From assembly GCA_031459715.1 (NCBI GenBank), contig JAVKIA010000004.1, positions 2,755-66,754 on the forward strand: a stretch of DNA of 64,000 nucleotides, read 5' to 3'. The notes below the pieces were generated by a model that was not told where the DNA came from, did not search any database, and saw only the letters and a program-made list of their open reading frames with translations. The first letter of the stretch is position 1; each line of letters begins with the position of its first letter. This DNA is from Candidatus Humicultor tengchongensis. Lineage in GTDB: Bacteria; Sysuimicrobiota; Sysuimicrobiia; Sysuimicrobiales; Humicultoraceae. This document shows, in pieces, positions 821 to 48,155 of the stretch. Made by a program: the position numbers and the translations under genes.

Positions 821-1000
821 CGAAGGTGTGAGGGCCACGGCGGCAGGCAGGTCTTCTGGCTCCGGTTCATCGCGCGGCCGGCCTTCCCGGGCGGCAGGGT
901 GATCGCCCTCGCCCAGTGGCCCCCTGGCCACACTCCCCGTTACAGCGGCGGGACCGCGCCGGATTCCCTGCGACCTCCGCAAGGCCTGCAGGTCACCGGC
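821..1000 (-). ncRNA. Cobalamin (B12) riboswitch in the 5' leader of the TonB-dependent receptor
   Basis: The minus-strand sequence contains GGGAAUCCGGCGCGGUCCCGCCGCUGUAACGGGG, then GGCCACUGGG, CCCGGGAAGGCCGG and GAAGACCUGCC. These match, in the same order, the conserved blocks of the E. coli btuB leader as I recall them (AGGGAAUCCAGUGCG…GCGGUAAGG, GCCAUUC…GGGAAGUC, GAAGACCUGCCGGCC). The element ends about 20 nt before the SD/ATG of the receptor gene. Boundaries are approximate. Confidence 0.75.
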
Positions 1001-1158
1001 TTCCCTCTTCCGACGGAGCGGCGCTCCGTCAACCTGCGCCGTTCACTGGGGTATTCCCGGCCGGGTGGCCGATTCCTCCCGGGGAGTTATCTCAGCGTGG
1101 ATGTGGCGCATCACCGTGCCCGTTGACGACTTGCCCGTAGGGAACCGCCTCGCCTGGG

Positions 1159-9929: not shown

Positions 9930-10829
9930 TCACCGCGCCTCCCCCGGCCGTGGCCCCAGCGGCGAGGCCTCTACGGCGAACACGCTGATCCCCGCCTCCT
10001 CCGCACGGGCGGCCAGCCGCAGCCGCTCCAGGACGATGGTGCGGAAGGCCTCCACCGCCAGCACCCGTGCCCGTCCCGCCCGCATCACCTCCACGGTTTC
10101 CGGACCCACGGTGGGAAGATCGAAGCGGGGGTCTTGCTGCGGCCGGCTCACCTTCACCACTACTGCGCCCGGTGCCATGGCCGTGCCCCGCCGGATGGCG
10201 GCATCGGTCCCCTCCGCCGCCTCCACGGCCAGGATCGCCCCGTGCTTGAGAACCACGGTCTGGCCCACTTCGTGGGCCGCCAGTGCACGGCCCACGGCCA
10301 GGCCGATGCGCACGTCGCGCTCTTCCGCAGGGCTAAGTGGGGTGCCGGCCAGCAGCCCGGGCGGGGCCACAAGGTCGGGGACGTAGGCGAGCTGGTCCAG
10401 GACGCGGATCCCCTGCGCGGCCAGGCGGCGGGCCAGGGCGTCCAGGATCTGCTGGTCACCCCGTTCCGGCAGTCGCTCCAGGAACCCGCGCAGGTCGGAC
10501 CCGGAGGCGAGCAGCCGCGCCACCATCTCTCCGCGGCGAAACCGCCCGGCCAGCAGTACCTCGCGCACTGCATGCCGGTGCCACAGGGCCTCCAGCTCCT
10601 CCCACTGCTCCGGGGCCAGCCTGGCGAAGACGTGGGCCAGGTGCTCCAGAGCCGGAGTCTCCCCCGCCATCTGCACGCAGACGAGGCGGCGGCCCCGCGC
10701 CCGCACCGCCCTGGCCAGCACCTCTGGCAGGCGCCCCTCGCCCGCCAGCAGTCCCACGGCACCGCGCAGTGCCTCCCCACCGCCTGGGGCGGCCCTGGGG
10801 AATCGTCTCTGGGGCCGGGCCGCGGTCAC
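9930..10829 (-). CDS. lpxI: UDP-2,3-diacylglucosamine hydrolase LpxI (DUF1009)
   Basis: DUF1009/LpxI-like core ([27 protein letters not shown]…[25 protein letters not shown]). The start GTG at 10829 overlaps the fabZ stop in a GTGA overlap that I checked in the DNA. The 397-aa track ORF is an N-terminally over-extended artefact. Confidence 0.7.
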
Positions 10830-11332
10830 CTCTCGCCGACCAGCGGCTCCGCGGAGGGTGCGGGCGCCACCTGTTCCTCCGGCAGGAGGGCAGTCGCCGT
10901 CTCTTCCCGGGGAAGGGCAAACGCGATCTCCGCTTCTGCCGCCACCTCCTCCCCCACCCGGGCCACTCCCCAGACCTTTCCCAGCCGCCCGCGCAGGGCC
11001 CGCACCTCCACCTCGATGCGCAGGGTGTCGCCGGGTACCACCGGGCGGCGGAAACGACAGCGGTCGATCCCGGCCAGGTAGGCCAGGTGCCCGCGCAGGC
11101 GGGGGACGTTGAGGATCAGGCACGCCGCCACCTGGGCCATCGCCTCCACCACCAGCACCCCCGGCATAACCGGATAGCCCGGGATGTGACCGGCGAAGAA
11201 GGGTTCGTTGACGGTCACGTTCTTGATGCCGACGATGCGCCGCTCCTCCATCTCCACGATCCGGTCCACGAGGAGAAAGGGGTAGCGGTGGGGCAGGATG
11301 GCAAGGATCTGCTCAAGGCTCAGTGCGGGCAT
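10826..11332 (-). CDS. fabZ: 3-hydroxyacyl-ACP dehydratase FabZ
   Basis: From the ATG at 11332: [60 protein letters not shown]…, the canonical FabZ hot-dog fold. 20-nt overlap with the lpxC 3' end. Confidence 0.9.
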
Positions 11333-34090: not shown

Positions 34091-34307
34091 GCAGGACCGG
34101 GGCGAAGGGCCCCTGGCCAGGATCCCGGTAAGGAAGCGCTTTGGGCACAGGCAGAAGCGTGGCTGGGGGGGCAGGCTTCGATCCTGCGCTGCCGGAGTCA
34201 AAGTCCGGTGTCCTCCCGATTAGACGACCCCCCAGCGCACCTGTATTGTCCTGAGGAGCGGGAAGCCGGTCAACCCCTGGGGGCCCGGTGGGGCGGGCCC
34301 GTCCTCA

Positions 34308-34706
34308 TCATGTGACCCGCCCCTCTCCCGCAAGGGCGACCACGTCTATCTCCACCAGCGCCCCGCGCGGCAGGCGGCTGACCGCCACCGTGGTCCGCGC
34401 CGGCGGCTCCTCCTGGAAGAACGCACCGTATTCCTCGTTCATCGGACCGAAGTCGTCCATCTGCGCCAGGAAGACCGTGCACTTGACCACGCGCCGCAAC
34501 GACGACCCCGAGGCCTCCAGGATGGCCCGGACGTTCTCCAGGACCTGACGGGTCTGCTGCTTGATGTCCGTCCCCACCAGCTGGCCGGTCTGGGGGTCCA
34601 GGGCGATCTGGCCCGAGAGGAAGAGCAGTCCTCCTGCCCGCACCGCCTGAGCGTAGGGGCCGATGGCCCGCGGCGCCCGGTCCGTGCTGATGATCTCCCG
34701 CTGCAT
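34308..34706 (-). CDS. ridA: RidA/YjgF-family reactive-intermediate deaminase
   Basis: 132 aa: …APRAIGPYAQAVRAGGLLFLSGQIALDPQTGQLVG…TVFLAQMDDFGPMNEEYGAFF…RTTVAVSRLPRGALVEID. Confidence 0.9.
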   Translation of the reverse strand: MQREIISTDRAPRAIGPYAQAVRAGGLLFLSGQIALDPQTGQLVGTDIKQQTRQVLENVRAILEASGSSLRRVVKCTVFLAQMDDFGPMNEEYGAFFQEEPPARTTVAVSRLPRGALVEIDVVALAGEGRVT

Positions 34707-34854: not shown

Positions 34855-35088
34855 CTACAGGGCCTGCAGCATGGCCTGCAGGCGGCGGCGCAGCGGCTCT
34901 GGGGCGGGCCGCCCCGCGCACCGCTGCCTGATGACCTCCCGGAGCCTCAGCTCGAACTCGTGGCGCGGTCCGCAGTCGCGGCACAGCCGCAGGTGTTCCT
35001 GGATCAGGTGGGAGGTCTGGGGATCGAGCTCCCGGTCCATGTACTGCCACAGCAGACGCACGACCTCTTCGCAGTGCACCGCGCTCAT
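34855..35088 (-). CDS. Zinc-binding (ZAS, HX3CX2C) anti-sigma factor, RsrA-like
   Basis: From the ATG at 35088: MSAVHCEEVVRLLWQYMDRELDPQTSHLIQEHLRLCRDCGPRHEFE…, with the HLIQEHLRLCRDC ZAS motif. ATGA overlap with the ECF sigma gene stop. Confidence 0.8.
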   Translation of the reverse strand: MSAVHCEEVVRLLWQYMDRELDPQTSHLIQEHLRLCRDCGPRHEFELRLREVIRQRCAGRPAPEPLRRRLQAMLQAL

Positions 35089-35693
35089 CGCCCCTCCCCT
35101 CCCTCGCCGGAGGGAAGCCGCCGCGCCCGCAGGGCGTACTCCCAAAGCGCCCGCTGCAGCAGCCATCGTCCGCGGAAGAGGCGGGACATCACCGTGCCAA
35201 TGGGGACTCCCAGGATGCGGGCGATCTCTTTGTAGGTGAACCCTTCCAGGTCCGCCAGGATGACCGCGGTGCGGAAAGCCTCCGGCAGCGAGGCCAGGGC
35301 CGCCTCCACGTCGGCGTCCATGATCGTCTGCAGGATGACCTCTTCCGGGTTCCCCTGGCGGCGCAGCTCCTCACTGGCCCGGACGCGGCTGTAGAGGTAC
35401 TGTGTCTCCATGTCCTCCTGGTCCACCACCTCTGGTTCGCGGTCCGTCTTGCGGTAGGCGTCGATGTAGGCGTTCATCAGGATGCGGTACAGCCAGGCGC
35501 GGGCGTTGGAGCCCGGCTGGAAGGTGTGAAAGGAGCGCCAGGCCTTGAGGAAAGTCTCCTGCACCAGGTCCTCCGCGGCGTCCCGGTCGCGGGTTAGGCG
35601 CAAAGCCGCGCTGTAGAGACGGTGGAGGTGCTCCTCCGCCAGCGCCGCAAACTCCCGGGCGGCCGGGGTCTGTGGCGAAGGCTGGTTCACCAT
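35085..35693 (-). CDS. ECF (group 4) RNA polymerase sigma factor, SigR/SigE-like
   Basis: 202 aa with region 2 (…LVQETFLKAWRSFHTFQPGSNARAWLYRILMNAYIDAYRK) and region 4 (EAFRTAVILADLEGFTYKEIARILGVPIGTVMSRLFRGR). Confidence 0.9.
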   Translation of the reverse strand: MVNQPSPQTPAAREFAALAEEHLHRLYSAALRLTRDRDAAEDLVQETFLKAWRSFHTFQPGSNARAWLYRILMNAYIDAYRKTDREPEVVDQEDMETQYLYSRVRASEELRRQGNPEEVILQTIMDADVEAALASLPEAFRTAVILADLEGFTYKEIARILGVPIGTVMSRLFRGRWLLQRALWEYALRARRLPSGEGGEGR

Positions 35694-35988: not shown

Positions 35989-36411
35989 CTACTCTGCGCC
36001 GGGGGCGTGCCCGTAGATCATGTCGTGCAGGGTGAGGCGTTCCAGCACCCCTTCAGCCGCGGCCTTCATGGCCATCCAGATGGGGCGGATGCCGCAGCCC
36101 GGGAGGTAAGCGCAGTTGGGATCCTCCACCCCCACGCACCACCACGGCGCTGCTCCCTCCTCCAGGACCTCGAAGGCCTCCCGCAGGGTAATCTGGGCTG
36201 GAGGGCGGGAGAGGGTGTGTCCACCGGCCGGCCCCCGTTTGCTGGCCACCAGCCCGGCCCGGCGCAGCGAGGCCATGATCTGGTTGAGGTAGGATTCGGG
36301 CAGGCCCTGCCGGGCGGCGATCTCGTGGCTCTGGACGTACCCCTCGCCGTAGTGGCGGGCCAGATCCACCAGCGCGCGCAGGCCGTACTCTGCGCGGCTG
36401 CTCACCTTCAC
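35989..36411 (-). CDS. Rrf2-family transcriptional regulator (IscR/CymR-like)
   Basis: The GTG at 36411 gives VKVSSRAEYGLRALVDLARHYGEGYVQSHEIAARQGLPESYLNQIMASLRRAGLVASKRGPAGG…, a canonical Rrf2 wHTH. It lies just downstream of the Cys/sulfur-carrier operon. Confidence 0.8.
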   Translation of the reverse strand: MKVSSRAEYGLRALVDLARHYGEGYVQSHEIAARQGLPESYLNQIMASLRRAGLVASKRGPAGGHTLSRPPAQITLREAFEVLEEGAAPWWCVGVEDPNCAYLPGCGIRPIWMAMKAAAEGVLERLTLHDMIYGHAPGAE

Positions 36412-36446
36412 CGCGCGTGCGCCGTGATCGATCCGGGTACGTACCC

Positions 36447-36848
36447 TCACTGCACGACCACGTCCTCTTCGCTCACCCGGCCGTCGACAATGCGGAAGCC
36501 CCGCACCTCTGGCCGCTGCGCCTGTTGCAGCGATATTATCACATAGACCGCCTCCGGGTAGAATGCCCTGGCCACGTCCGTGCGCGAGGGCGCGGCCTGG
36601 CTGGCGGTGTGCGAGTGGTAGATGCCCACGATCTCCAGTCCTTCCCGGTCCATCTCCCGCAGGAACTGCAAGAGCTGCCGGTCGTCCAGTCGGTAGGTGT
36701 AGGGGCTCTGATCGACGTTGTGCCCGCGGTAGACGCGGAGGACCTGCCCGTCCCGCCCTGCCAGCAACCCACAGCACTCCAGGGGAAAGGTCTCCCGCGC
36801 GTGGGCGATCATCTCTTCCAGGTGCTCCCGCGTCAGCCGCAGCGTCAT
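36447..36848 (-). CDS. JAMM/MPN+ metalloprotease (Mec+-like, sulfur-carrier C-terminal peptidase)
   Basis: 133 aa with JAMM motifs E…(ECCGLLAG)…HSHTASQAAPSRTD, i.e. HxHx7Sx2D. Its start codon abuts the cysM-like stop. Confidence 0.85.
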   Translation of the reverse strand: MTLRLTREHLEEMIAHARETFPLECCGLLAGRDGQVLRVYRGHNVDQSPYTYRLDDRQLLQFLREMDREGLEIVGIYHSHTASQAAPSRTDVARAFYPEAVYVIISLQQAQRPEVRGFRIVDGRVSEEDVVVQ

Positions 36849-37802
36849 CTATCCGAACACCCCGGTGGAGAGGTAGCGGCCGCCGCCGTCGGGCAGAACC
36901 ACCACAATCACCCCCTGGCCGATCTCGCGGGCCACCTGCAGCGCCGCCAGCATGGCCGCGCCGGCCGAGGGGCCGACCAGCCAGCCTTCCTCCCGTGCCA
37001 GGCGCCGAGTCATGGCGTAGGCGGCCTCGGTGGTAACGGCGATCACCCGGTGGTGCACGGAGGGGTCATAGATGCCCGGGACGATGGAGGTGGCCATGTG
37101 CTTCAGCCCCTCCAGGCCGTGCAGCGGGCCGTCGGGCTCCACGGCGATGATCTGCACGTGTGGCCGCTCCTCCCGCAGCCGCCGTCCCACCCCCACCAGG
37201 GTGCCCGAGGTGCCCAGGCCGGCGATGAAGTGGGTGAGGCGGCCCTCGCTCTGGGCGATGATCTCCGCTCCCGTGGTCTCGTAGTGGGCGCGCCAGTTGG
37301 CGGGATTGTTGTACTGATCCAGCAGGAGGTAACGGTACGGCGCGGCGGCAAACAGCTGCCGCGCCAGGCGGATGGCTCCGTCGGACCCCTCCAGCGGGTC
37401 GGAGGGGATGACCGTGGCCCCGAAGGCCTGGATGATCCGCCGTCGCTCCACGCTCACGTTCTGCGGCATGACCAGCTCCACCCGGTAGCCCTTGGCCGCT
37501 CCGATCATGGCGTAGGCGATGCCCGCGTTCCCCGAGGTGGCATCCAGGAGGACCTTCCCCGGGGTGAGCCGGCCCTCGCGCTCCGCCTCCTCGATCATCC
37601 GCAGCACGGGCCGGTCCTTCACCGACCCTCCGGGATTGAACCACTCCGCCTTGGCCAGGATCTCCACCCCGGGGGGGACACCGCCCAGGCGCGTCACCCG
37701 CAGCAGCGGCGTGCGACCGATGCACCCCAGGAGGTGGCTGCCGAGACGGTGGGCGGGCGAGACCGGGCGGGTGGACACTCCTGCCGTCACCTCAGTCGTC
37801 AA
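36849..37802 (-). CDS. cysM: Cysteine synthase B-like PLP enzyme (CysM / CysO-dependent type)
   Basis: 317 aa: …LLRVTRL…ILAKAEWFNPGGSVKDRPVLRMIEEAEREGRL…TSGNAGIAYAM…, PLP fold-type II. Confidence 0.8.
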   Translation of the reverse strand: MTTEVTAGVSTRPVSPAHRLGSHLLGCIGRTPLLRVTRLGGVPPGVEILAKAEWFNPGGSVKDRPVLRMIEEAEREGRLTPGKVLLDATSGNAGIAYAMIGAAKGYRVELVMPQNVSVERRRIIQAFGATVIPSDPLEGSDGAIRLARQLFAAAPYRYLLLDQYNNPANWRAHYETTGAEIIAQSEGRLTHFIAGLGTSGTLVGVGRRLREERPHVQIIAVEPDGPLHGLEGLKHMATSIVPGIYDPSVHHRVIAVTTEAAYAMTRRLAREEGWLVGPSAGAAMLAALQVAREIGQGVIVVVLPDGGGRYLSTGVFG

Positions 37803-38631
37803 AGAGGACCGTGGGCTCCGGGTAGAGACGCACCCGATGGGCCAGCAGGCGCGCGTGGATCAGATCGCGCAGGGCGGCGTTCTTCTCCTCCACCGTGCCG
37901 GGCGCACGCAGCACCTCCAGCGGCAGGTTGACTCGCAGCGCGCGGTTGGGGATGACATGGCGGGTGATCCCGGTGGGCAGCTTCTGCGGGAGGACGGCCA
38001 GCCGCAGGATCTGCGCCTTGGTGAAGCGCGGGAAGACCACCAGCACGCCGATCCGGTCGTATTCGGCACGCAGGAGGCGGCGGTCCGTGGTCAGGACGCG
38101 GTAGATGGGTACGCGTCCGTTGTAGGCGTCCACCACGGCGCGCATGGCCCCCACCCGCGCGGTGAGGGACCGCTCCGCCCGCACACCCAGCACCCCCTGC
38201 TCCCAGATCAGGCCGCAGGCCAGGCGGCCGTTGCGCAGCGCGCCGGCCAGCCGGGCGGTGCTGTCCAGGGGAACCAGCGGTAGCTGTGGAAGCAGGCGCG
38301 CCAGCGCGGGGCCATCCTCCCGCAGCAGGTGGTGCCACACCTCCACGCGCACCGCAGCCGCGCCGTAATCCACGACCTGAAGGAGGTGGTGCGGGAGGCC
38401 CAGGCGCTGCAGGGCGCAGGTGCGGTTCGCCCCGTCCAGAATCACGTAGCCGCCATCCGGCAGCGCCGCGGCCAGCGGCGGGTTGCGCAGCACCCCCTCC
38501 TGCTCCAGCTGCTCCACCAGCGCGGCGACGCGCCTCGGATCGGCGTCCTCGTGCAGGTGGACCTCCGCCGCCGGGACGATGCGCAGGGTGGGGAGGACCT
38601 GGGCGGAGGAGGAACGGGCGGGAGGCGTCAT
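37792..38631 (-). CDS. ParB/Srx-like (sulfiredoxin-fold) domain protein of unknown function, embedded in the sulfur-carrier operon
   Basis: 279 aa. The N-terminal region shows a ParB/Srx-type motif (GGYVILDGANRTCALQRLGLPHHLLQVVDY). There is an 11-nt overlap with the downstream cysM-like gene and a 4-nt overlap with the upstream CBS-like gene. Confidence 0.5.
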   Translation of the reverse strand: MTPPARSSSAQVLPTLRIVPAAEVHLHEDADPRRVAALVEQLEQEGVLRNPPLAAALPDGGYVILDGANRTCALQRLGLPHHLLQVVDYGAAAVRVEVWHHLLREDGPALARLLPQLPLVPLDSTARLAGALRNGRLACGLIWEQGVLGVRAERSLTARVGAMRAVVDAYNGRVPIYRVLTTDRRLLRAEYDRIGVLVVFPRFTKAQILRLAVLPQKLPTGITRHVIPNRALRVNLPLEVLRAPGTVEEKNAALRDLIHARLLAHRVRLYPEPTVLFDD

Positions 38632-40028
38632 GGGCGACCGAGGACCCTGGCCAGGTGGTCGATGACGTCGATCTTGGTGACGATGCCGACGACGCGTCCG
38701 CTGTCGATGACCACAGCCGCGTTGGCGCTGAGGAAGATCTCCGCCAGCTCGCCCACCGGCGTCTCCGGCGTGACCACCGGGGCGCCGGGGTTAACCAGAA
38801 GGGTGATGGGGTCGTCGAGGCCGCCTCCGCCCTCCAGCAGGTAGGAGAGCAGATCCACCTCGCTGACCATGCCCACCAGGCCGCCGTCAGCCACCACCGG
38901 CAGCTGGGAGACGTCGTACTGCTTCATCTTGGCGATCACCGCGCGCACCTGCTCGTCGGGCGTCGCGGTGATCAGCGGCAGGCCCTTGGCCCGCAGCAGG
39001 TCGGCCACGGTGCCCAGCTCCGCCTCCAGGTAGCCGTTCTCCCGCATCCAGTCGTCGTCGAAGACCTTGGAGAGGTAGCGAAACCCGGAGTCGGGCAGGA
39101 TGACCACAGCCCGCTTCCCCTCTCCGTGGTCGGGCAGACCGCGCAGGTAGCGCAGGGCCCCGGCCACGGCGCTGCCGCTGCTGCCTCCGCAGAACAACCC
39201 CTCTTCCCGCACCAGGCGACGGGTCATGAGGAAGGATTCCCGGTCGGTGACCTGGACCACCTCATCCACGACGCGGAAGTCCATGGTTCCGGGAAGGAAG
39301 TCCTCGCCGATCCCTTCCACCTTGTAGGTGTGCGCCTCCCCCAGCGTGCCGCTGCGGAAGTAGTGGCTGTACACCGAGCCCACCGGGTCCACACCCACCA
39401 CCTTCACCTGAGGGTTGCGCTCCTTAAGGAAGCGTCCCACTCCGGAGATGGTCCCCCCGGTGCCCATGCCACAGACGAGGATGTCCACGCGGCCGCCGCT
39501 GTCCTCCCAGATCTCCGGGCCGGTGGTTTCGTAGTGAGCGGCGGGGTTGTCCGGGTTGTGGTACTGGTCGGCGTACCAGGCGCCGGCGGTCTCCTCCGCC
39601 AGCCGCCGGCTGACGCTGTAGTAGGAGCGCGGGTCCTGGGGCGCCACCGCCGTGGGCGTGATCACCACCCTGGCGCCGAAGGCGCGCAGGAGGCGGATCT
39701 TCTCCTCGGACATCTTATCCGGCATCACGAAGATGCAGCGGTAGCCGCGCACGGCTGCCACCAGGGCCAGGCCCATGCCGGTGTTGCCCGAGGTGGCCTC
39801 AACGATGGTCCCCCCCGGCCGCAGCCTCCCCTGCGCCTCCGCCACAGCCACCATGCGCACGCCGATGCGGTCCTTCACCGACCCTCCGGGGTTGAGGAAC
39901 TCCAGCTTGGCCACCACGTCGGCGCGCACGCCCCGGGCCACCCGGTGCAGGCGCACCAGCGGGGTCCCTCCCACCACCTCCAGGATGCTGTCGTGGATGC
40001 GTTCGCCGGCGCGCACCTGCGTCCTCAC
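38628..40028 (-). CDS. Cystathionine beta-synthase-like PLP enzyme with C-terminal tandem CBS domains
   Basis: The true start is the GTG at 40028, in a GTGA overlap with the cysO-like stop that I checked. It contains …SILEVVGGTPLVRLHRV…KLEFLNPGGSVKDRIGVRMV…TSGNTGMGLAL…, and the C-terminus has two CBS motifs (…VRAVIAKMKQYDVSQLPVV…, …GVVGIVTKIDVIDHL). The 571-aa track ORF is over-extended. Confidence 0.8.
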   Translation of the reverse strand: MRTQVRAGERIHDSILEVVGGTPLVRLHRVARGVRADVVAKLEFLNPGGSVKDRIGVRMVAVAEAQGRLRPGGTIVEATSGNTGMGLALVAAVRGYRCIFVMPDKMSEEKIRLLRAFGARVVITPTAVAPQDPRSYYSVSRRLAEETAGAWYADQYHNPDNPAAHYETTGPEIWEDSGGRVDILVCGMGTGGTISGVGRFLKERNPQVKVVGVDPVGSVYSHYFRSGTLGEAHTYKVEGIGEDFLPGTMDFRVVDEVVQVTDRESFLMTRRLVREEGLFCGGSSGSAVAGALRYLRGLPDHGEGKRAVVILPDSGFRYLSKVFDDDWMRENGYLEAELGTVADLLRAKGLPLITATPDEQVRAVIAKMKQYDVSQLPVVADGGLVGMVSEVDLLSYLLEGGGGLDDPITLLVNPGAPVVTPETPVGELAEIFLSANAAVVIDSGRVVGIVTKIDVIDHLARVLGRP

Positions 40029-40327
40029 CCCTCGGCCTCCCCCGCCGTCCCCCCGGCCATGGCCGGAATGATGGACACCTCGTCCTGCGGCCCCACCGGG
40101 GTCTCCTCCCCGCGCAGGGTGCGCATCTCGTCGCCGTTGACGAAGATGTTGATGTAGGCGCGCACGTGCCCCTGGTCGTCCAGCACCTGGGCGCCCACCC
40201 CCGGGTAGGCCGCGTGCAGGTTCGCCAGCACCTCCCGCACCGTGCTTCCCGGGATCTGCACCCGGCTCTGCCCGCCGGTCTGCCGCCGCAGCGGCGCGGG
40301 CAGGTAGACAGTTGCCATGGACATCAC
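40025..40327 (-). CDS. MoaD/ThiS/CysO-family sulfur-carrier protein with a C-terminal extension after the Gly-Gly
   Basis: 100 aa: …VRAYINIFVNGDEMRTLRGEETPVGPQDEVSIIPAMAGG-TAGEAEG*. This is a beta-grasp carrier ending in GG followed by a 7-residue tail. A JAMM protease is encoded in the same operon. Confidence 0.75.
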   Translation of the reverse strand: MMSMATVYLPAPLRRQTGGQSRVQIPGSTVREVLANLHAAYPGVGAQVLDDQGHVRAYINIFVNGDEMRTLRGEETPVGPQDEVSIIPAMAGGTAGEAEG

Positions 40328-40393
40328 CTCCTACGCACCCCACGAATTCTGTCCGCGAATTCGTGGGGACCCCCGGAACTCATCTCCCCCTTC

Positions 40394-41545
40394 CTAGGAC
40401 CCCAGCGCCTGGTCCAGGTCCGCCATCAGATCCTCCGGGTGCTCCAACCCCACCGAGAGGCGCAGCAGCCCCTCCTCCACCGCCAGGGGTGTCCCCGCCA
40501 CGCTGGCGTGAGTCATCGACGCCGGGTGATCGATCAACGACTCAACCCCGCCCAGGCTCTCCGCCAGGAGGAACAGTCGGGTCGCGGACGCGACCCGACG
40601 GGCTTCCGCCTTCCCGCCGTGGACCACGAACGAGACCATGCCGCCGAAGCAGCGCATCTGCCGCGCGGCCAGCTCGTGGCCGGGATGGTCGGCCAGCCCC
40701 GGATAGAGGACCAGGCTGACCCGCGGATGCCGGCGCAGGAAGTGAGCCACCTTCGCCGCGTTCTGCGGGTGCCGCTCCATGCGCACCGCCAGGGTGCGCA
40801 GCCCGCGCAGAACCAGCCAGCAGTCCAGCGGGCCGGGGACGGCGCCCACCGCATTTTGCAGGAACTTCAGCCGCTGGTACAGGTCGGCGCGGGAGGTGAG
40901 CACCGCCCCGCCCACTACGTCGCTGTGGCCCCCCAGGTACTTGGTCGTGGAGTGGACCACCAGGTCGGCGCCCAGGCGCAGCGGCTGCTGCCCGTAGGGG
41001 GTGGCAAAGGTATTGTCCACCGCCACCAGCGCCCCGGCGGCGTGGCCCAGCTCCGCCAGGCGGGCGATGTCCAGGATGTGCAGGTAGGGGTTGGTGGGCG
41101 TCTCCAGGAAGAGCAGCCGGGTGCTTTCCCGCATCGTCCGCTCCACCGTGGGAAGGTTGCGCATGTCCACGAAGGTGGTCTCGATGCCATAGCGCTGCAG
41201 GACACGAACGAAGAGGCGGTGTGTGCCGCCGTAGACATCATCCGGGGCCACCACGTGGTCCCCGGGGGCAAGCAGCAGGGCCACTGCGGTGATGGCCGCC
41301 ATCCCCGAGGCGAAGGCCAGCCCGTACTCCGCCTCCTCCAGAGAGGCCAGTGCCCGCTCCAGGGCGGTGCGGGTGGGGTTGGCGGTGCGGGAGTAATCGT
41401 ACCCCCGGTGCTCCCCTGGAGCCTGCTGCACGTAGGTAGAAGTCTGGTAGATGGGAGGGATCACCGCCCCGGTGGTGGGGTCGGGCGCCTGGCCATCGTG
41501 GATGGCCCGCGTCTCGAAGCGGTGGGAGGACGGCATCAGGAGCAC
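40394..41545 (-). CDS. Cys/Met-metabolism PLP enzyme (cystathionine gamma-synthase / gamma-lyase family, MetB/MetC-like)
   Basis: 383 aa: …FETRAIHDGQ…SRTANPTRTALE…, with the conserved PLP-lysine region (…HSTTKYLGGHSDVVGGAV…). Confidence 0.85.
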   Translation of the reverse strand: MLLMPSSHRFETRAIHDGQAPDPTTGAVIPPIYQTSTYVQQAPGEHRGYDYSRTANPTRTALERALASLEEAEYGLAFASGMAAITAVALLLAPGDHVVAPDDVYGGTHRLFVRVLQRYGIETTFVDMRNLPTVERTMRESTRLLFLETPTNPYLHILDIARLAELGHAAGALVAVDNTFATPYGQQPLRLGADLVVHSTTKYLGGHSDVVGGAVLTSRADLYQRLKFLQNAVGAVPGPLDCWLVLRGLRTLAVRMERHPQNAAKVAHFLRRHPRVSLVLYPGLADHPGHELAARQMRCFGGMVSFVVHGGKAEARRVASATRLFLLAESLGGVESLIDHPASMTHASVAGTPLAVEEGLLRLSVGLEHPEDLMADLDQALGS

Positions 41546-42243
41546 ACCGTCTCCGCCGCCAGCGGGGCCAGCCGCTCTTCCACCTCCGGCCGCCCCACCG
41601 GCAGCAGCTCCAGGGCGTACACTTCGGCGAACCGTCGTGCGTAGGCATCGGCCACCGCGGCAACGGAGACCTCCTGGCCCAGCAGACGGCTCATGGAGGT
41701 GACGGGGCGGTTCAGGCCGCAGGGGTTGATCCAGGTGAAGGGCTCCAGATCTGTGGTGACGTTCAGGGCCACCCCATGCATGGTCACCCGCCGCTTCACC
41801 GCCACGCCCACGGCGGCCAGTTTCGCCTCGCCTACCCAGACGCCGGGGAAGCCGCGCATCCGGACGGCGTTGATCCCGAAGTCGGCGACGGTTCGGATCA
41901 CCGACTCCTCCAGCGCTCGCATGAAGCGCACCACGTCCTCATCCATGGCCCGCAGGTCGAGGATGGGATACGCCACCAGCTGCCCCGGCCCGTGGTAGGT
42001 GACCCCGCCGCCGCGCTCGATCTGGTAGATCTCGACGCCGCGCTGCCGCAGCACCTCGGGAGGCAGCAGCAGGTGCCCCCGATCCCCGGACCGCCCCAGG
42101 GTGATCACCGGGTGATGCTGCAGCAGCAGGACCACGTCGGGGATGGCTGCCCGCTGCCGGGCGGCGACCAGCCGCCGCTGCAGCGCCCAGGCGTCGGCAA
42201 AGGGCGTCAGCCCTTCAAGGGTCACCAGCCATGCATCCCGCAT
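41536..42243 (-). CDS. lipB: Octanoyltransferase LipB
   Basis: From the ATG at 42243: MRDAWLVTLEGLTPFADAWALQRRLV…HHPVITLGRSGD…GGGVTYHGPGQLVAYPIL…, with the LipB catalytic Cys region NPCGL. Confidence 0.85.
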   Translation of the reverse strand: MRDAWLVTLEGLTPFADAWALQRRLVAARQRAAIPDVVLLLQHHPVITLGRSGDRGHLLLPPEVLRQRGVEIYQIERGGGVTYHGPGQLVAYPILDLRAMDEDVVRFMRALEESVIRTVADFGINAVRMRGFPGVWVGEAKLAAVGVAVKRRVTMHGVALNVTTDLEPFTWINPCGLNRPVTSMSRLLGQEVSVAAVADAYARRFAEVYALELLPVGRPEVEERLAPLAAETVCS

Positions 42244-42481: not shown

Positions 42482-43548
<1,067 letters not shown>

Positions 43549-43552
<4 letters not shown>

Positions 43553-45183
43553 CCCTCTCCCCTCCACCGCTCCTGCGCCAGCAGCAGCCACAGGGAGAGG
43601 GAGGAGAATCCCAGCAGCATCAGCGCGGGAGCGGCTGCCCGGGCGAAGAACCCTTCGGTGGCCGTGGACCAGATGCGCGTGGCCAGCGTCTCGAAGCCCG
43701 TGGGGCCAAGCAGCAGCGTCGCCGGCAGCTCCTTCATCGTGGTGAGGAAGACCAGCGCCGCCGCTGCCACCACCCCCGGGCGGACCAGCGGCAGGGTAAC
43801 GGTGCGCAGGACCTGGAAGGGGCTGCGCCCCAGGGTCTGCGCCGCCTCCTCCTGTGAGGGGCTCACCTGCGCCAGGCCCGCACGCAGCGGGCCCAGTGCC
43901 TGGGGCAGGAAGTGAACGGCGTAGGCGAAGATCAGTAGCCCCAGCGTCTGGTAGACGAACGGCAGATAGCGTGCGGCGAAGAAGACCAGCGATAGCGCCA
44001 GGACGATGCCGGGAAGGGCGAACCCGGCGTAGGTGAGGCGCGAGATCAGGCCGGCCAGCCACCCCCCGTGGCGCACGGAGAGGATGGCCACGGGCAGCGC
44101 CGCCACCACCGTGACTCCCGCCGCCAGGACGGAGGCATACAGGGAGCGAAAGGCGGGGCGCAACGCCAGAGCCAGGGGCTCACCCTGCCGTACTCCCACC
44201 ACCAGCCAGTAGCCGATGACCCCTACAGGGACAAGCACGCCCAGCACGGTCGCCAGCCCGCACAGCGTCAGGGCCGGCCACCGCCAGGGGCCCAGCCGCC
44301 GGGGGGGAAGGGCACGGGAGGTCCCCCGCAGGCGGTAGAACCGGCCCCGCCCTTGCCGATCCTCCAGGAGCACTATCAGCGAGGCCATGGCTACCAGCAC
44401 CAGGGAGAGGACGGCCGCGTAGTGCCGGTTGAAGGACGCCTGATACTGCAGGTAGATGGCCGTGGTGAAGGACTCGAACTGCATCATGGAAACGGCACCG
44501 AAGTCGCTGAGCACGTACAGCGCCACCAGCACGGCACCCGCGCCCACCCACGGCCTCAAGTGGGGGACGGTGACGCGGCAGAAGGCGCGCCAGCCTCCAT
44601 CGCCCAGGGTGCGCGCTGCCTCCTCCAGGGCCGGGTCCATCCCGCGCAGGCCCGCCCGGGCGCTTAGCAGGACGTAGGGATAGGTCACCAGGGTGAGGGT
44701 GATCCAGGCACCGGGGAACCCGTAAAGGCCCCCTGGCCGCAAGGCGATCCCCAGGCGGTCTGCCAGGTGGTGCACCACCCCCCACGGCCCGAAGACGGTA
44801 GCCACGATGATCCCGCTGATGAAGGAGGGTACCGCCAGCGGCAGAACGGTGAGTGTACTCCACAGCCGCGCGCCCGGCAGGTCGGTGCGGGTGGTCACCC
44901 AGGCCAGGGGCAGGGCGACGGCCACCGCGCTGGCGGTGACGGCCGAAGCCAGAAGCACGGTGCGCAGGAGGATGCGGAGTGTACGGGGCTGCACCAGCAG
45001 GCGCCAGATCCCTTCGTCCGCGCCGGCCGCACGCACTCCCAGGTAGAGCACGGGCAGCAGCAGCGCCCCTGCCACCAGCAGCGAGGGTAGCAGAACTAGA
45101 GGGCCGGGAGGCCGACGACGGACCGGACCGCGGACCGGGCCCTCCCTGCGCAGCGTCAGGGCAGACGGCAGGGCCACAGCCAT
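43549..45183 (-). CDS. Fe3+ ABC transporter permease, fused two-domain (FbpB-like)
   Basis: 544 aa with about 12 TM helices and two EAA-like loops (…ARTLGDGGWRAFCRVTVPHLRP…, …AAQTLGRSPFQVLRTVTLPLVRP…). Confidence 0.8.
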
Positions 45184-45188
45184 GGCCG

Positions 45189-46223
45189 CTACAGGATACC
45201 TGCCTCCCGCAGCAGGCGGAGGGTCTCCTCCAGAGCCTGCAGGTGGTTGAGGTCCACGGGCGGGGTGCTGATCTGCGCCAGCGGCCGCAGCAGGGGGTGG
45301 GCGGGAATGCCGGCGACCAGCGGGTACTCGAAAGTCTCAGTGGCGAAGTAGCGCTGCGCCTGGGGGGATAGCAGGAACTCCACCAGGCGCAGGGCCGCGG
45401 CACTGCGCGCAGTGTCTATAACGCCCACGCCGGCCACGTTGATCAGGTTGCCGGCGTCAGGCCCGGGGAAGAAGTAGTTACGCACCGGGAAGCCCTCCCC
45501 CCGCTCCTGCAGGAAGCGGAAGAGGTAGTAGTGGTTGACGAATCCCACGTCGATCTCGCCCGCGCCCAGGGCAGCGACGATGGCGGTGTTGTTGCGGTAG
45601 GCCCGTGGGGCGTTGGCCCTCATTCCCAGGAGCCACGCCCGCGTCCGCTCATTCCCCCACAGCAGGCGCATGGCCGTCACGTGCGCCTGGAAGGACCCGT
45701 TGGTCGGCGCCCAGCCCATGCGCCCCCGCCAGCGGGGGTCTGTGAAGTCGCGGATAGAGGCGGGAAGATCGCGGGGGGAGAGGCGACGCGTGTTGTACGC
45801 GACGACGCGGGCCCGGCCGCTAATCCCCACCCACAGCCCCTCGCCAGAGCGAAAGCGGGGTTCCACCTTCTGCAGAAGCCCCTCCGGCAGGCGCTGCAGC
45901 CGGCCGGCGTAGGCCAGCGCCCCCAGCGCACCGGCATCCTGAGCGAAGTAGACGTCCGCAGGACTGTTGGCCCCCTCCTCCATGATGGTGGCGGCGAGCT
46001 CGGCCGTCTCCCCGTAACGGACGCGTAACCGGACTCCGCTGGCCTGAGCGAACCGCTCCAGCAGCGGCCCCACGAGCTCCTGATTGCGTCCGGAGTAGAC
46101 CGTGACCGTGGCCGGCTGCGCTCCCAGAGTGGCGAAGGACCCGAGGAGGAACGGCAGGAGGGCCACCAGGAGGACTATGGGGCGCGCGCACCGCAGGCAG
46201 GCACCGCTCATGGCCTCTCCCAT
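45189..46223 (-). CDS. Fe3+ ABC transporter periplasmic substrate-binding protein (FbpA/AfuA-like)
   Basis: 344 aa with a signal peptide, then …TVTVYSGRNQELVGPLLERFAQASGVRLRVRYGETAEL…, an SBP_bac_1/iron-binding fold. Confidence 0.75.
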   Translation of the reverse strand: MGEAMSGACLRCARPIVLLVALLPFLLGSFATLGAQPATVTVYSGRNQELVGPLLERFAQASGVRLRVRYGETAELAATIMEEGANSPADVYFAQDAGALGALAYAGRLQRLPEGLLQKVEPRFRSGEGLWVGISGRARVVAYNTRRLSPRDLPASIRDFTDPRWRGRMGWAPTNGSFQAHVTAMRLLWGNERTRAWLLGMRANAPRAYRNNTAIVAALGAGEIDVGFVNHYYLFRFLQERGEGFPVRNYFFPGPDAGNLINVAGVGVIDTARSAAALRLVEFLLSPQAQRYFATETFEYPLVAGIPAHPLLRPLAQISTPPVDLNHLQALEETLRLLREAGIL

Positions 46224-46310
46224 CCCTCCCCTGCTCCCGAGAGCAGGCGGACTTGGATCGCTCCGCGCGTTACGCTATCCTAATTCTTGACCATGGAACA
46301 ACAGAATCCA

Positions 46311-46327
46311 CCAACAATCGTTGTTGG
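46311..46327. promoter_or_regulatory. 7-3-7 inverted repeat CCAACAAtcgTTGTTGG in the divergent fbpA/fur promoter region: candidate Fur-family operator
   Basis: A perfect 7-bp inverted repeat centred about 20 nt upstream of the fur ATG (46342), within the 118-bp intergenic region shared with the divergent iron ABC operon. Confidence 0.4.
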
Positions 46328-46341
46328 GTACACCGTGCGGC

Positions 46342-46770
46342 ATGATCAGCGCCGCTGAGCTGCGCCAGCGCCTCCGGGAGGCCGGCCGGCGGGTCACGCC
46401 CCAGCGCGACCTGATCTTCCGCCTGCTGGAGGAGACCCAGGCCGACCACCCCTCCGCCGAGATGCTCCACCTGCGGGCCGCGCGCCAGATGCCCTCCATC
46501 TCCCTGCGCACGGTCTACGCAGTGCTGGCCGAGCTACAGGAGCTGGCCGTGGTGCGGCCCCTGGACCTGGGCACCGGCAGCACGCGATTCTGCACCAACG
46601 TCCGCAACCACCACCACCTGGTCTGCGAACGCTGCGGCCGGGTAAAGGACGTCTTCATGGAGCTGGCCTCGCTGGAGGTCCCCGAGGAACAGCGCAGCGG
46701 GTTTCTGGTCAAGGAGCAGTCGGTGGTCTTCCGCGGCCTGTGCGCCGGGTGCCGGGGCGCGGGCGCCTGA
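46342..46770 (+). CDS. fur: Fur-family metalloregulator (Fur/Zur/PerR)
   Basis: From the ATG at 46342 (the track ORF starts at an upstream TTG): MISAAELRQRLREAGRRVTPQRDLIFRLLEE…HHHLVCERCGRVKDV…, with HHH and CxxC metal sites. Confidence 0.85.
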   Translation: MISAAELRQRLREAGRRVTPQRDLIFRLLEETQADHPSAEMLHLRAARQMPSISLRTVYAVLAELQELAVVRPLDLGTGSTRFCTNVRNHHHLVCERCGRVKDVFMELASLEVPEEQRSGFLVKEQSVVFRGLCAGCRGAGA

Positions 46771-46796: not shown

Positions 46797-48155
46797 CTAC
46801 GGCTGCAGCGCCGCCAGCTCCCGGGTGGCCGCGGCCACCGCCTCTGCGGGATAGGCGTAGTCCTCCAGACGGCCGCTCAGGTACTCCTGGTAGGCCTGCA
46901 GGTCGAAGTGGCCGTGCCCGCTGAGGTTGAACAGGATAACCCGCGGGACCCCCAGCTCCCTCGCCTCCAGGGCCTCGTCGATGACCCGGCGCACGGCATG
47001 CGCCGACTCGGGCGCGGGGACGATCCCCTCGCTGCGGGCGAACTGCACCGCCGCCTCGAAGACCGCGCGCTGGCCGTAGGCTGCGGCCTCCACATACCCG
47101 GCATCGTAGAGCAGGCACAGCGACGGCGCGTCGCCATGGTAGCGCAGGCCGCCGGCGTGGATCCCCGGGGGGATGAAGGTGTGTCCCAGGGTGTACATCT
47201 TGAACAGGGGGGTGGTGGCCGCGGTGTCGCCGAAGTCGTAGAGGTAGCGGCCGCGGGTGAGCGAAGGGCAGGCCTCGGGCTCCACGGCCACGAAGCGGAC
47301 GTCCTTGCCCTTGAACCGGTCCCGCAGGAACGGGTAAGCCAACCCGGCGTAGTTGCTCCCCCCGCCCACGCAGCCGATGACCACGTCGGGGTACTCACCG
47401 GCCAGCTCCATCTGCCGCCTGGCCTCCAGGCCGATGACGGTCTGGTGCAGGAGGACGTGGTTGGCCACGCTGCCGATGGAGTACTTGGTGTCGTCATGCG
47501 TGGCCGCGTCCTCCACCGCCTCGCTGATGGCGATGCCCAGACTCCCCGGAGAGTGCGGGTCCCGCTGGCGGATCGTCCGCCCGGCATGGGTCCTCTCGCT
47601 GGGGCTGGGCAGGACCTCCGCCCCCCAGGTCTCCATGATCACCCGGCGGTAGGGCTTCTGCTCGTAGGAGACCCGCACCATGTACACGGTGCACTCCAGG
47701 CCGAAAAGGCGGCAGGCCAGGGCCAGCGCGCTGCCCCACTGTCCGGCGCCGGTCTCCGTGGTCAGGCGACGCACCCCCGCCTCCCGGTTGTAGAAGGCCT
47801 GGGCCACCGCGGTGTTGGGTTTGTGGCTGCCCGCGGGGCTGGTGCCCTCATACTTGTAGTAGATGTGCGCCGGCGTCCCCAGGGTCCGCTCCAGGCGGTG
47901 GGCACGGTATAGCGGCGTGGGGCGCCACAGCTGGTAGATCTCCCGCACCGGCTCGGGGATTTCCACCTCCCGCTCGGTGGAGACCTCCTGCTGGATGATC
48001 TGCGGGGGGAAGAGCGGCGCCAGGTCATCCGGACCGATGGGCTGCTTGGTGGCCGGATGGAGCACCGGGGGGAGCGGTAGCGGCAGGTCGGCCAGGATGT
48101 TGTACCAGGCCCCAGGCAGGTCGCGCTCGTCCAGCACGAATTTGGTCTGCGGCAT
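46797..48155 (-). CDS. TrpB2-type tryptophan synthase beta-chain-like PLP enzyme
   Basis: From the ATG at 48155: [25 protein letters not shown]…[18 protein letters not shown]…, the TrpB2 (indole-salvaging) subgroup. Confidence 0.8.

Follow-up and report, generated by a model that had tools for sequence, protein, structure and literature searches.

In Mycobacterium tuberculosis, the operon mec+-cysO-cysM (Rv1334-Rv1336) encodes a sulfur-carrier protein, a CysM-type cysteine synthase, and a JAMM peptidase, with the activating enzyme (E1, MoeZR) unlinked to it. Carriers of the ThiS/MoaD family that have residues after their Gly-Gly (GG) and a co-encoded JAMM peptidase are said to have been described in Godert 2007 and in Krishnamoorthy & Begley 2011; QbsE/QbsD (thioquinolobactin) and HcyS/HcyD (methionine pathway of Wolinella) are of this kind, with tails of 1-2 residues and a linked E1. 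As far as we know, free serine kinases have been described in a few hyperthermophilic archaea and, beyond these, only in the synthesis of staphylococcal siderophores. SerK of Thermococcus kodakarensis (TK0378) phosphorylates free serine for cysteine synthesis, and Makino et al. did not find clear homologues of it in bacteria (PMC5120207). CysM of M. tuberculosis uses the CysO thiocarboxylate and O-phosphoserine; a review calls this type of CysM actinobacteria-specific, and making cysteine by way of a protein thiocarboxylate has until now been regarded as a specialty of actinobacteria (PMC9547175). Here we analyze a cluster of eight co-directional genes at positions 35989-42243 (minus strand) of a 64,000-nt stretch of contig JAVKIA010000004.1 from Candidatus Humicultor tengchongensis, a hot-spring bacterium assigned to the phylum Armatimonadota. 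We refer to this whole stretch (G+C ∼71%) as the window.

In the direction of transcription the cluster encodes lipB, a MetB/CGL-like (cystathionine gamma-lyase) enzyme, a tailed CysO-like carrier, a cystathionine beta-synthase (CBS), a ParB/Srx-like protein, a CysM-like synthase, a JAMM peptidase, and an Rrf2 regulator. We propose, with a probability of about 0.68, that it is a cysteine-supply operon, which brings together two ways of making cysteine under an Rrf2 regulator of the Fe-S type. Judged by its gene content, the operon appears to be the Mec+/CysO/CysM pathway extended in four ways, by a probable serine kinase, a tailed carrier, reverse transsulfuration, and the Fe-S-type regulator. 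As in M. tuberculosis, the carrier, the CysM-type enzyme, and the JAMM peptidase share one operon with the E1 outside it, but here a serine-kinase homologue stands directly upstream of CysM, the CBS, MetB-type lyase, lipB, and Rrf2 genes lie in the same operon, and the carrier has a 7-aa tail where M. tuberculosis CysO ends at GG. The core triad of carrier, JAB peptidase, and cysteine synthase is also shared with types 4c/4d of Iyer, Burroughs & Aravind 2006, in which ThiS/MoaD proteins occur with JAB and cysteine synthase, with or without an E1-rhodanese (PMC1779556). The main text of that study contains neither "sulfiredoxin" nor "cystathionine" and so names neither the ParB/Srx-fold partner nor the cystathionine enzymes, and the architectures that it gives include no N-terminal fusions of a carrier to CBS (PMC1779556).

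The eight-gene order from lipB to Rrf2, first proposed in a preliminary description of this DNA, is borne out by coordinates, strand, profile matches, and independent gene calls. Public gene calls at the identical locus in three Armatimonadota hot-spring metagenome-assembled genomes (MAGs; L087-L089, with L087 being GCA_031458875.1) give the same genes at the same lengths, and an Armatimonadota MAG encodes a protein with 100% identity to the carrier. The complete gene order is found again in at least 17 species-level genomes, so the arrangement is not a matter of chance. At its head, in the window as in nearly all related loci, stands lipB (41536-42243, minus strand), encoding an octanoyl/lipoyl transferase (NF010925, 185 bits against a cutoff of 155; Pfam LplA-B_cat, 4e-51). 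The tight coupling that the preliminary description ascribed to all junctions holds for most of them: lipB and metB overlap by 1 nt (TGATG), carrier and CBS by GTGA, and CBS and the ParB-like gene by ATGA, the ParB-like gene and CysM are 1 nt apart, the TAG of CysM is followed directly by the ATG of the JAMM gene (0-nt gap), and JAMM and Rrf2 overlap by GTGA, or lie 35 nt apart if Rrf2 starts at 36411. It fails at the metB-carrier junction, a 75-nt gap that contains a 12-bp palindrome. The number of pyridoxal 5′-phosphate (PLP) enzymes, given there as two, is three (MetB-type, CBS, and CysM-like). The combination of a CysO/CysM pair with CBS and a gamma-lyase/synthase was called unusual, which is right with respect to characterized systems but not within this clade, where it is the standard layout.

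Among the additions is the ParB/Srx-like gene (37792-38631, minus strand), whose 279-aa product has no match in a Pfam scan and is matched by the NCBIfam models for SbnI (5e-17) and SerK (3e-8); the solved structures of both proteins are also among its matches. A family profile built from 40 homologues aligned over its full length with SbnI (3e-26) and SerK (2e-11) in the PDB. The AlphaFold2 model of the protein (predicted local distance difference test score, 92.4; predicted template modeling score, 0.88) returned SbnI or SerK structures at Foldseek ranks 1-9 (6nr6, 5x0b, 5uje, and others), with E values of 1e-17 to 1e-15, template modeling scores of 0.73-0.83 on the target, and 241-266 aligned columns. 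The next matches, to Noc, ParB, and sulfiredoxin, had E values of ∼3e-4 over only ∼80 columns, a gap of 13 orders of magnitude in E value, and what is matched is the two-domain fold of a ParB/Srx N-terminal domain followed by a SerK-type C-terminal domain. Glu28 aligns with SerK E30 and SbnI E20, and Asp66, within the sequence DGANR (DGxxR motif), aligns with SbnI D58; both residues are invariant in the 40 family members, as are K205 and R224-H225 of the C-terminal domain. We take E20 and D58 of SbnI to be catalytic residues, and the PDB contains structures of SerK E30A/Q mutants. NCBI names SbnI an O-phospho-L-serine synthase, and it is described as bifunctional, a regulator as well as a kinase.

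By sequence and predicted structure, we assign the ParB/Srx-like protein to the SerK/SbnI free L-serine kinase fold, with the two-domain architecture and the catalytic Glu and Asp of both proteins, and consider it most likely to be a free L-serine kinase that makes O-phospho-L-serine. Such an identity would explain its position beside CysM. The same pairing with an O-phosphoserine-consuming PLP enzyme of the CysK/CysM family is found for SerK with cysteine synthase (PMC5120207) and for SbnI with SbnA. In contrast to SerK and SbnI, the proteins related to the one described here form a separate, largely unannotated bacterial clade and occur in fusions that are not seen for either. Our literature search found no link between SerK/SbnI-like proteins and CysO/CysM.

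A search with the family profile recovered 1,791 clusters (50% identity) at an E value of ≤1e-3 and 384 at ≤1e-30, and more than 530 genome stretches from Armatimonadota, Chloroflexota, Latescibacterota, Eisenbacteria, and some Proteobacteria encode a relative of the kinase. We counted neighbors at 80 species-level loci encoding a kinase homologue, taking genes within 10 kb as nearby. CysM lies directly downstream of the homologue in 36 loci and CBS directly upstream in 27, with a carrier nearby in 37 and a JAMM gene in 43; in an Eisenbacteria genome another PALP enzyme follows the homologue. Four proteins of 582-603 aa (P0297, P0332, P0362, and P0382) begin with the catalytic half of phosphoglycerate dehydrogenase (SerA), which catalyzes the first step of the phosphoserine pathway, and continue into the kinase homologue. 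The SerA part scores 357-382 bits with TIGR01327 over model positions 1-307 to 2-328 of 525, and the kinase homologue takes the place of the usual regulatory C terminus. The window also encodes a TrpB2-type "TrpB-like PLP enzyme" (46797-48155, minus strand; NF009057, 743 bits) ∼8.5 kb upstream of the kinase gene. At least 15 relatives have a TrpB2 gene nearby in synteny; that of Ideonella (L049; 8498-9829) stands immediately beside the kinase homologue (10001-10855) and diverges from it. The TrpB2 enzymes are O-phosphoserine-dependent tryptophan synthases according to Busch 2014, in the terms in which PMC11917138 cites that work. The independent associations with PALP neighbors, with TrpB2, and with SerA in fusions all point to O-phosphoserine as the product of the kinase.

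The carrier gene (40025-40318, minus strand) encodes a CysO-like ThiS/MoaD precursor of 97 aa, which matches Pfam ThiS (1.8e-12) up to profile position 76 of 76. Its residues 3-90 align with M. tuberculosis CysO (3dwg_C), the best match in the PDB (E value of 2e-14, 39% identity), through the terminal GG of that protein, and both the ThiS and SAMP1 profiles stop at residue 90. The GG, at residues 89-90 (codons 40054-40049), is followed by seven more residues, TAGEAEG (codons 40048-40028), so that it would be exposed only after processing. Among the 120 best homologues of the carrier, the motif PAMAGG is invariant, and 116 have tails of 1-57 aa that are not conserved in sequence, the other 4 ending at GG. 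The closest relative with a free carrier (L003) has a 7-aa tail of unrelated sequence, RIAPAVA, with the same overlap with CBS. The series continues into fusions, a range far beyond the 1-2 residues of QbsE and HcyS: in ten species-level loci (L005, L032, L034, L035, L037, L040, L041, L044, L056, and L061) the carrier runs in frame into CBS through linkers of ∼2-40 residues with PAMAGG kept, in L001/L002 and in protein clusters P0050, P0053, P0076, P0083, P0085, and P0086 it is fused to the kinase homologue, and in a Chloroflexota cluster ordered CBS, kinase, carrier, CysM, and MoeZ its GG is followed by a fused FeS_assembly_P (DUF59) domain (L081, 7071-7655). We note that one carrier subgroup (P0178, P0186, P0194, P0201, P0205, P0219, P0239, and others) has Cys-rich tails after GG (for example, TILQACFCPGRARRDATV and SLLQVCFCCG), which recall the Cys-Phe tail of QbsE.

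The JAMM gene (36447-36848, minus strand) encodes an MPN+ zinc peptidase similar to Mec+, QbsD, and HcyD (Pfam Prok-JAB, 2.4e-28), with a complete site made up of E24 and H78-S-H80-x7-S88-x2-D91. Two doubts raised in the preliminary description, that the GG of the carrier might not sit at the conserved position and that the HxHx7Sx2D site of the peptidase might not be intact, are answered by alignment: the GG coincides with the C-terminal GG of CysO and falls where the ThiS profile ends, and the JAMM motif is present here and kept in 47 of 47 relatives. The tail after GG was seen as described, and the idea that it would need trimming has gained in strength from the 116 tailed homologues, the invariance of PAMAGG, and the fusions to CBS or the ParB-like protein that keep GG. 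We predict that the JAMM peptidase both trims the carrier tail and hydrolyzes a carrier-Cys adduct. A direct fusion of a JAMM domain to the kinase homologue also occurs (P0263).

The CysM-type cysteine synthase (36849-37790, minus strand, with alternative starts at 37802 and 37778) scores 348 bits with TIGR01136 (cutoff, 344) and has its PLP lysine at Lys58. At the column of Arg220 in M. tuberculosis CysM, the comparison sequence for which we confirmed to be identical to 3dwg_A, it has Lys230, and Lys occupies this column in 43 of the 44 CysM proteins of such clusters, within the motif EG[LW]KH. Arg220 presumably takes part in phosphate recognition, and a basic residue at its position would be compatible with a phosphate ester as substrate without being proof of one. 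The CBS (38628-40028, minus strand, GTG start) carries a C-terminal Bateman module of two CBS domains (1e-20), scores 543 bits with TIGR01137 (cutoff, 510), and has its best PDB match, at full length, in the M. tuberculosis CBS Rv1077 (4e-124). The MetB-type PLP enzyme (40394-41536, minus strand), a cystathionine gamma-lyase/synthase (NF005871, 565 bits; cutoff, 513) with the PLP-lysine motif STTKY, finds its best PDB matches in the mycobacterial enzymes 8sf4 and 3qhx (E values of 1e-137 to 1e-139). By these matches it is an orthologue of mycobacterial MetB of the Rv1079 type, and it makes with CBS, the orthologue of Rv1077, a predicted reverse-transsulfuration pair, of which Rv1077 and Rv1079 (4e-124 and ∼1e-138) are the best solved relatives. 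The pair in the window differs from these in being split by the carrier gene and in lying inside a thiocarboxylate operon, with ten relatives bearing an N-terminal carrier on CBS. An O-phosphoserine-dependent CBS was also considered; the residue at the column of Arg220 is Glu, which looks canonical when judged by eye, and we keep the idea only as one of low probability.

As already described, the operon encodes no E1-like enzyme. Of the 80 related loci, 11 have a gene for a MoeZ-type E1 (ThiF plus rhodanese) nearby. Nine relatives of the Armatimonadota type have it 3-4 kb past the sigma factor gene described below, and two from Chloroflexota (L050 and L081) have it within the cluster. Given the MoeZ genes that go with the cluster in these relatives, we consider it very unlikely that the ParB/Srx-fold enzyme stands in for E1 by phosphorylating the carrier carboxylate.

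The last gene of the operon encodes the Rrf2-family regulator (35989-36450, or with its start at 36411, minus strand; Pfam Rrf2, 1.9e-35; TIGR00738, 117 bits), in which the Cx7Cx5C triad of the Fe-S type is conserved in 42 of 42 relatives. Directly downstream, on the same strand and syntenic in most relatives, follow genes for a SigH/SigR-like extracytoplasmic function sigma factor (35085-35693; TIGR02947, 187 bits), an RsrA-like anti-sigma factor of the ZAS (zinc) type with the sequence HLRLCRDC (HxxxCxxC) (34855-35088; TIGR03988, 60.9 bits against a cutoff of 62.5), and RidA (34308-34706; TIGR00004, 167 bits). This neighborhood parallels M. tuberculosis, where SigH drives mec-cysO-cysM under oxidative stress (PMC8280819). 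A promoter-like site, GGAAT-N17-CGTT (35760-35735, minus strand), lies just upstream of the sigma gene; the SigR/SigH-type motif occurs only there, with none upstream of lipB or of the carrier, and a scan with promoter and terminator consensus sequences gave nothing useful in the operon.

On the reading that we favor, the two routes would work as follows, every enzymatic activity in the scheme being a prediction from gene content, order, and junctions, homology, fold, the conservation of catalytic residues and of the cluster, and fusions. The first route would be the protein-thiocarboxylate pathway as in M. tuberculosis Mec+/CysO/CysM, with its own supply of substrate. The SerK/SbnI-like enzyme would convert free L-serine to O-phospho-L-serine, and the JAMM peptidase would take the 7-residue tail off the 97-aa carrier precursor to expose Gly-Gly, which a MoeZ-type E1 encoded elsewhere in the genome, as suggested by the linked MoeZ genes of relatives, would adenylate and thiocarboxylate. 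CysM would then join O-phosphoserine to the carrier thiocarboxylate, and, by analogy with the M. tuberculosis system, an S-to-N acyl shift would be followed by hydrolysis of the Gly-Cys bond by the same JAMM peptidase, releasing cysteine. In the second route, reverse transsulfuration, CBS and the MetB-type lyase would make cysteine from homocysteine and serine. Since the JAMM peptidase would cut the peptide bond after GG in each cycle, any C-terminal extension of the carrier would be tolerated and removed without extra cost, and tails would therefore be free to drift in length and sequence across the carrier subfamily and fusions to arise. The tail in the window serves to encode the ribosome-binding site and overlapping start of CBS, and in relatives such tails would have grown into fusions with CBS or the kinase.

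Several observations weigh against this reading. The ParB/Srx-like protein is only ∼20% identical to SerK and SbnI, the distance across which substrate and phosphate donor are extrapolated, and it falls well under the NCBIfam equivalog cutoffs (62 against 350 bits for SbnI and 33 against 380 bits for SerK), which makes it a member of a distinct subfamily rather than an orthologue of either. CysM is 46% identical both to M. tuberculosis CysM and to E. coli CysM, which uses O-acetylserine and thiosulfate, has Lys rather than Arg at the phosphate-binding position, and lacks the C-terminal extension of the M. tuberculosis enzyme, so that O-phosphoserine is a putative substrate. No ThiF/MoeB E1 was found in the 64-kb window by tblastn with L005 MoeZ and E. 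coli MoeB, the best E value being 0.85. About a third of the loci (26 of 80) encode a kinase homologue without any sulfur-related neighbor, and a search for recurrent neighbors in these 26, which are without CysM, CBS, carrier, or JAMM, recovered nothing beyond genes kept in synteny by members of the genus Thermoflexus, an uninformative result. Five reduced clusters (L013, L015, L017, L020, and L033) consist of lipB, the kinase homologue, JAMM, and Rrf2 and have no carrier or CysM in the vicinity; carrier chemistry consequently does not fully explain the link between kinase and JAMM.

The low identity and subthreshold scores leave room for the ParB/Srx-like protein to be something other than a serine kinase, either a regulator, DNA binding being a property of SbnI as well, or a kinase that acts on a different hydroxy-amino acid, for example homoserine. 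Plant cystathionine gamma-synthase uses O-phosphohomoserine, and the MetB-type enzyme of the operon could in principle do the same. We find this unlikely, because the catalytic Glu and Asp and the C-terminal K and RH motifs are invariant across the family, and because its conserved neighbors are the beta-replacement enzymes CysM, CBS, another PALP enzyme, and TrpB2 rather than MetB; clusters without metB, such as L001 and L014, retain the kinase. The fusions to the catalytic part of SerA link this family with phosphoserine synthesis, and SerK of T. kodakarensis rejects threonine and homoserine (PMC5120207). A different function for the carrier, and one that we regard as quite improbable, is protein conjugation of the SAMP (small archaeal modifier protein)/TtuB kind, with a distant E1, the JAMM peptidase as deconjugase, the PLP enzymes as targets or merely co-regulated, and CysM using free sulfide. 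The carrier does pass the NCBIfam SAMP1 equivalog cutoff marginally (63.1 bits against 60), a further point against the pathway that we prefer, and its public record reads "ubiquitin-like small modifier protein 1"; the sole NCBIfam match of the JAMM peptidase is desampylase, at 90 bits against a cutoff of 130, and the N-terminal fusions to enzymes resemble ubiquitin precursor fusions. CysO is nonetheless a far better match (2e-14) than the Haloferax-type "Small archaeal modifier protein 1" chains (2.5e-5 to 5.9e-5) or the Methanosarcina acetivorans SAMP1 homologue 2l52 (1.7e-6), the E1s found nearby carry the rhodanese domain typical of sulfur transfer, and the frequencies of CysM, carrier, and JAMM around the kinase (36, 37, and 43 of 80) speak for a sulfur pathway. 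Sulfur-carrier and modifier roles are not mutually exclusive in archaea.

Another explanation, to which we give not much less than even odds, is that the seven residues after GG do nothing in themselves; the tail would be a by-product of translational coupling to CBS or of a frameshift in a G run, and the mature form could even be a carrier-CBS fusion. The Shine-Dalgarno sequence of the CBS gene, GGGGGAGG, lies inside the tail codons, 6 nt before the GTG, the stop codon of the carrier overlaps that start, and tail sequences are not conserved. The Gly-Gly codons form a run of six G (40049-40054), at which one additional G would create an in-frame carrier-CBS fusion with the linker DGGGGRG, an architecture that exists naturally in the ten relatives mentioned above; the run is possibly a slippage site, or the trace of a past fusion and fission. 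The unfused 97-aa form is, however, identical in three independent assemblies, and relatives without the G run have similar tails. A tail of this origin does not conflict with the cysteine-supply operon proposed here, because it would still have to be removed before the GG carboxylate is activated.

A broader proposal, which we advance tentatively and hold to be somewhat doubtful as a whole, joins these strands: a large unannotated family of bacterial free L-serine kinases, in Armatimonadota, Chloroflexota, and others, would make O-phosphoserine as a hub for CysM, fed with protein thiocarboxylate, for TrpB2, and possibly for CBS, and the carrier would be made in the manner of ubiquitin and released by JAMM, from a precursor with a disposable tail or from an N-terminal fusion to CBS, the kinase, or a DUF59 protein.

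Other features of the window can be noted more briefly. The palindrome in the metB-carrier gap, CCCCACGAATTC-N7-GAATTCGTGGGG, is perfect over 12 bp and lies at 40338-40368, just upstream of the ribosome-binding site of the carrier. It is limited to the window and the closest relative (L007), on which ground we rejected a conserved operator; elsewhere among the relatives this junction spans 9-25 nt or holds an insert with another hairpin. This suggests a lineage-specific hairpin or operator-like insert and repeated insertion of REP-like elements at that junction. L005 and L018 contain different hairpin-rich inserts of 130 nt there. The region upstream of lipB (42482-46770) encodes the binding protein, permease, and ATPase of an ABC transporter of the iron(III) type and, divergently, a regulator of the Fur family; L087 and L088 have the same synteny. 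Scanned with Rfam over its full length, the window gave two matches and no others, a cobalamin riboswitch (829-1051, minus strand, 79.6 bits) and a tRNA-Gln(TTG) gene (34160-34234, minus strand), both outside the operon and unrelated to it.

The combination of the thiocarboxylate route with a serine kinase in a phylum other than that of M. tuberculosis suggests a self-contained module leading from serine through O-phosphoserine to cysteine. It gives a testable function to a family of at least 1,100 sequence clusters whose members are labeled hypothetical or "ParB N-terminal domain" in databases. The natural series of carriers from short tails to full enzyme fusions offers a model for JAMM maturation of bacterial ubiquitin-like proteins and bears on the origin of ubiquitin precursor processing. 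In practical terms, genes of cysteine and serine metabolism could be annotated better in Armatimonadota and Chloroflexota that have not been cultured.

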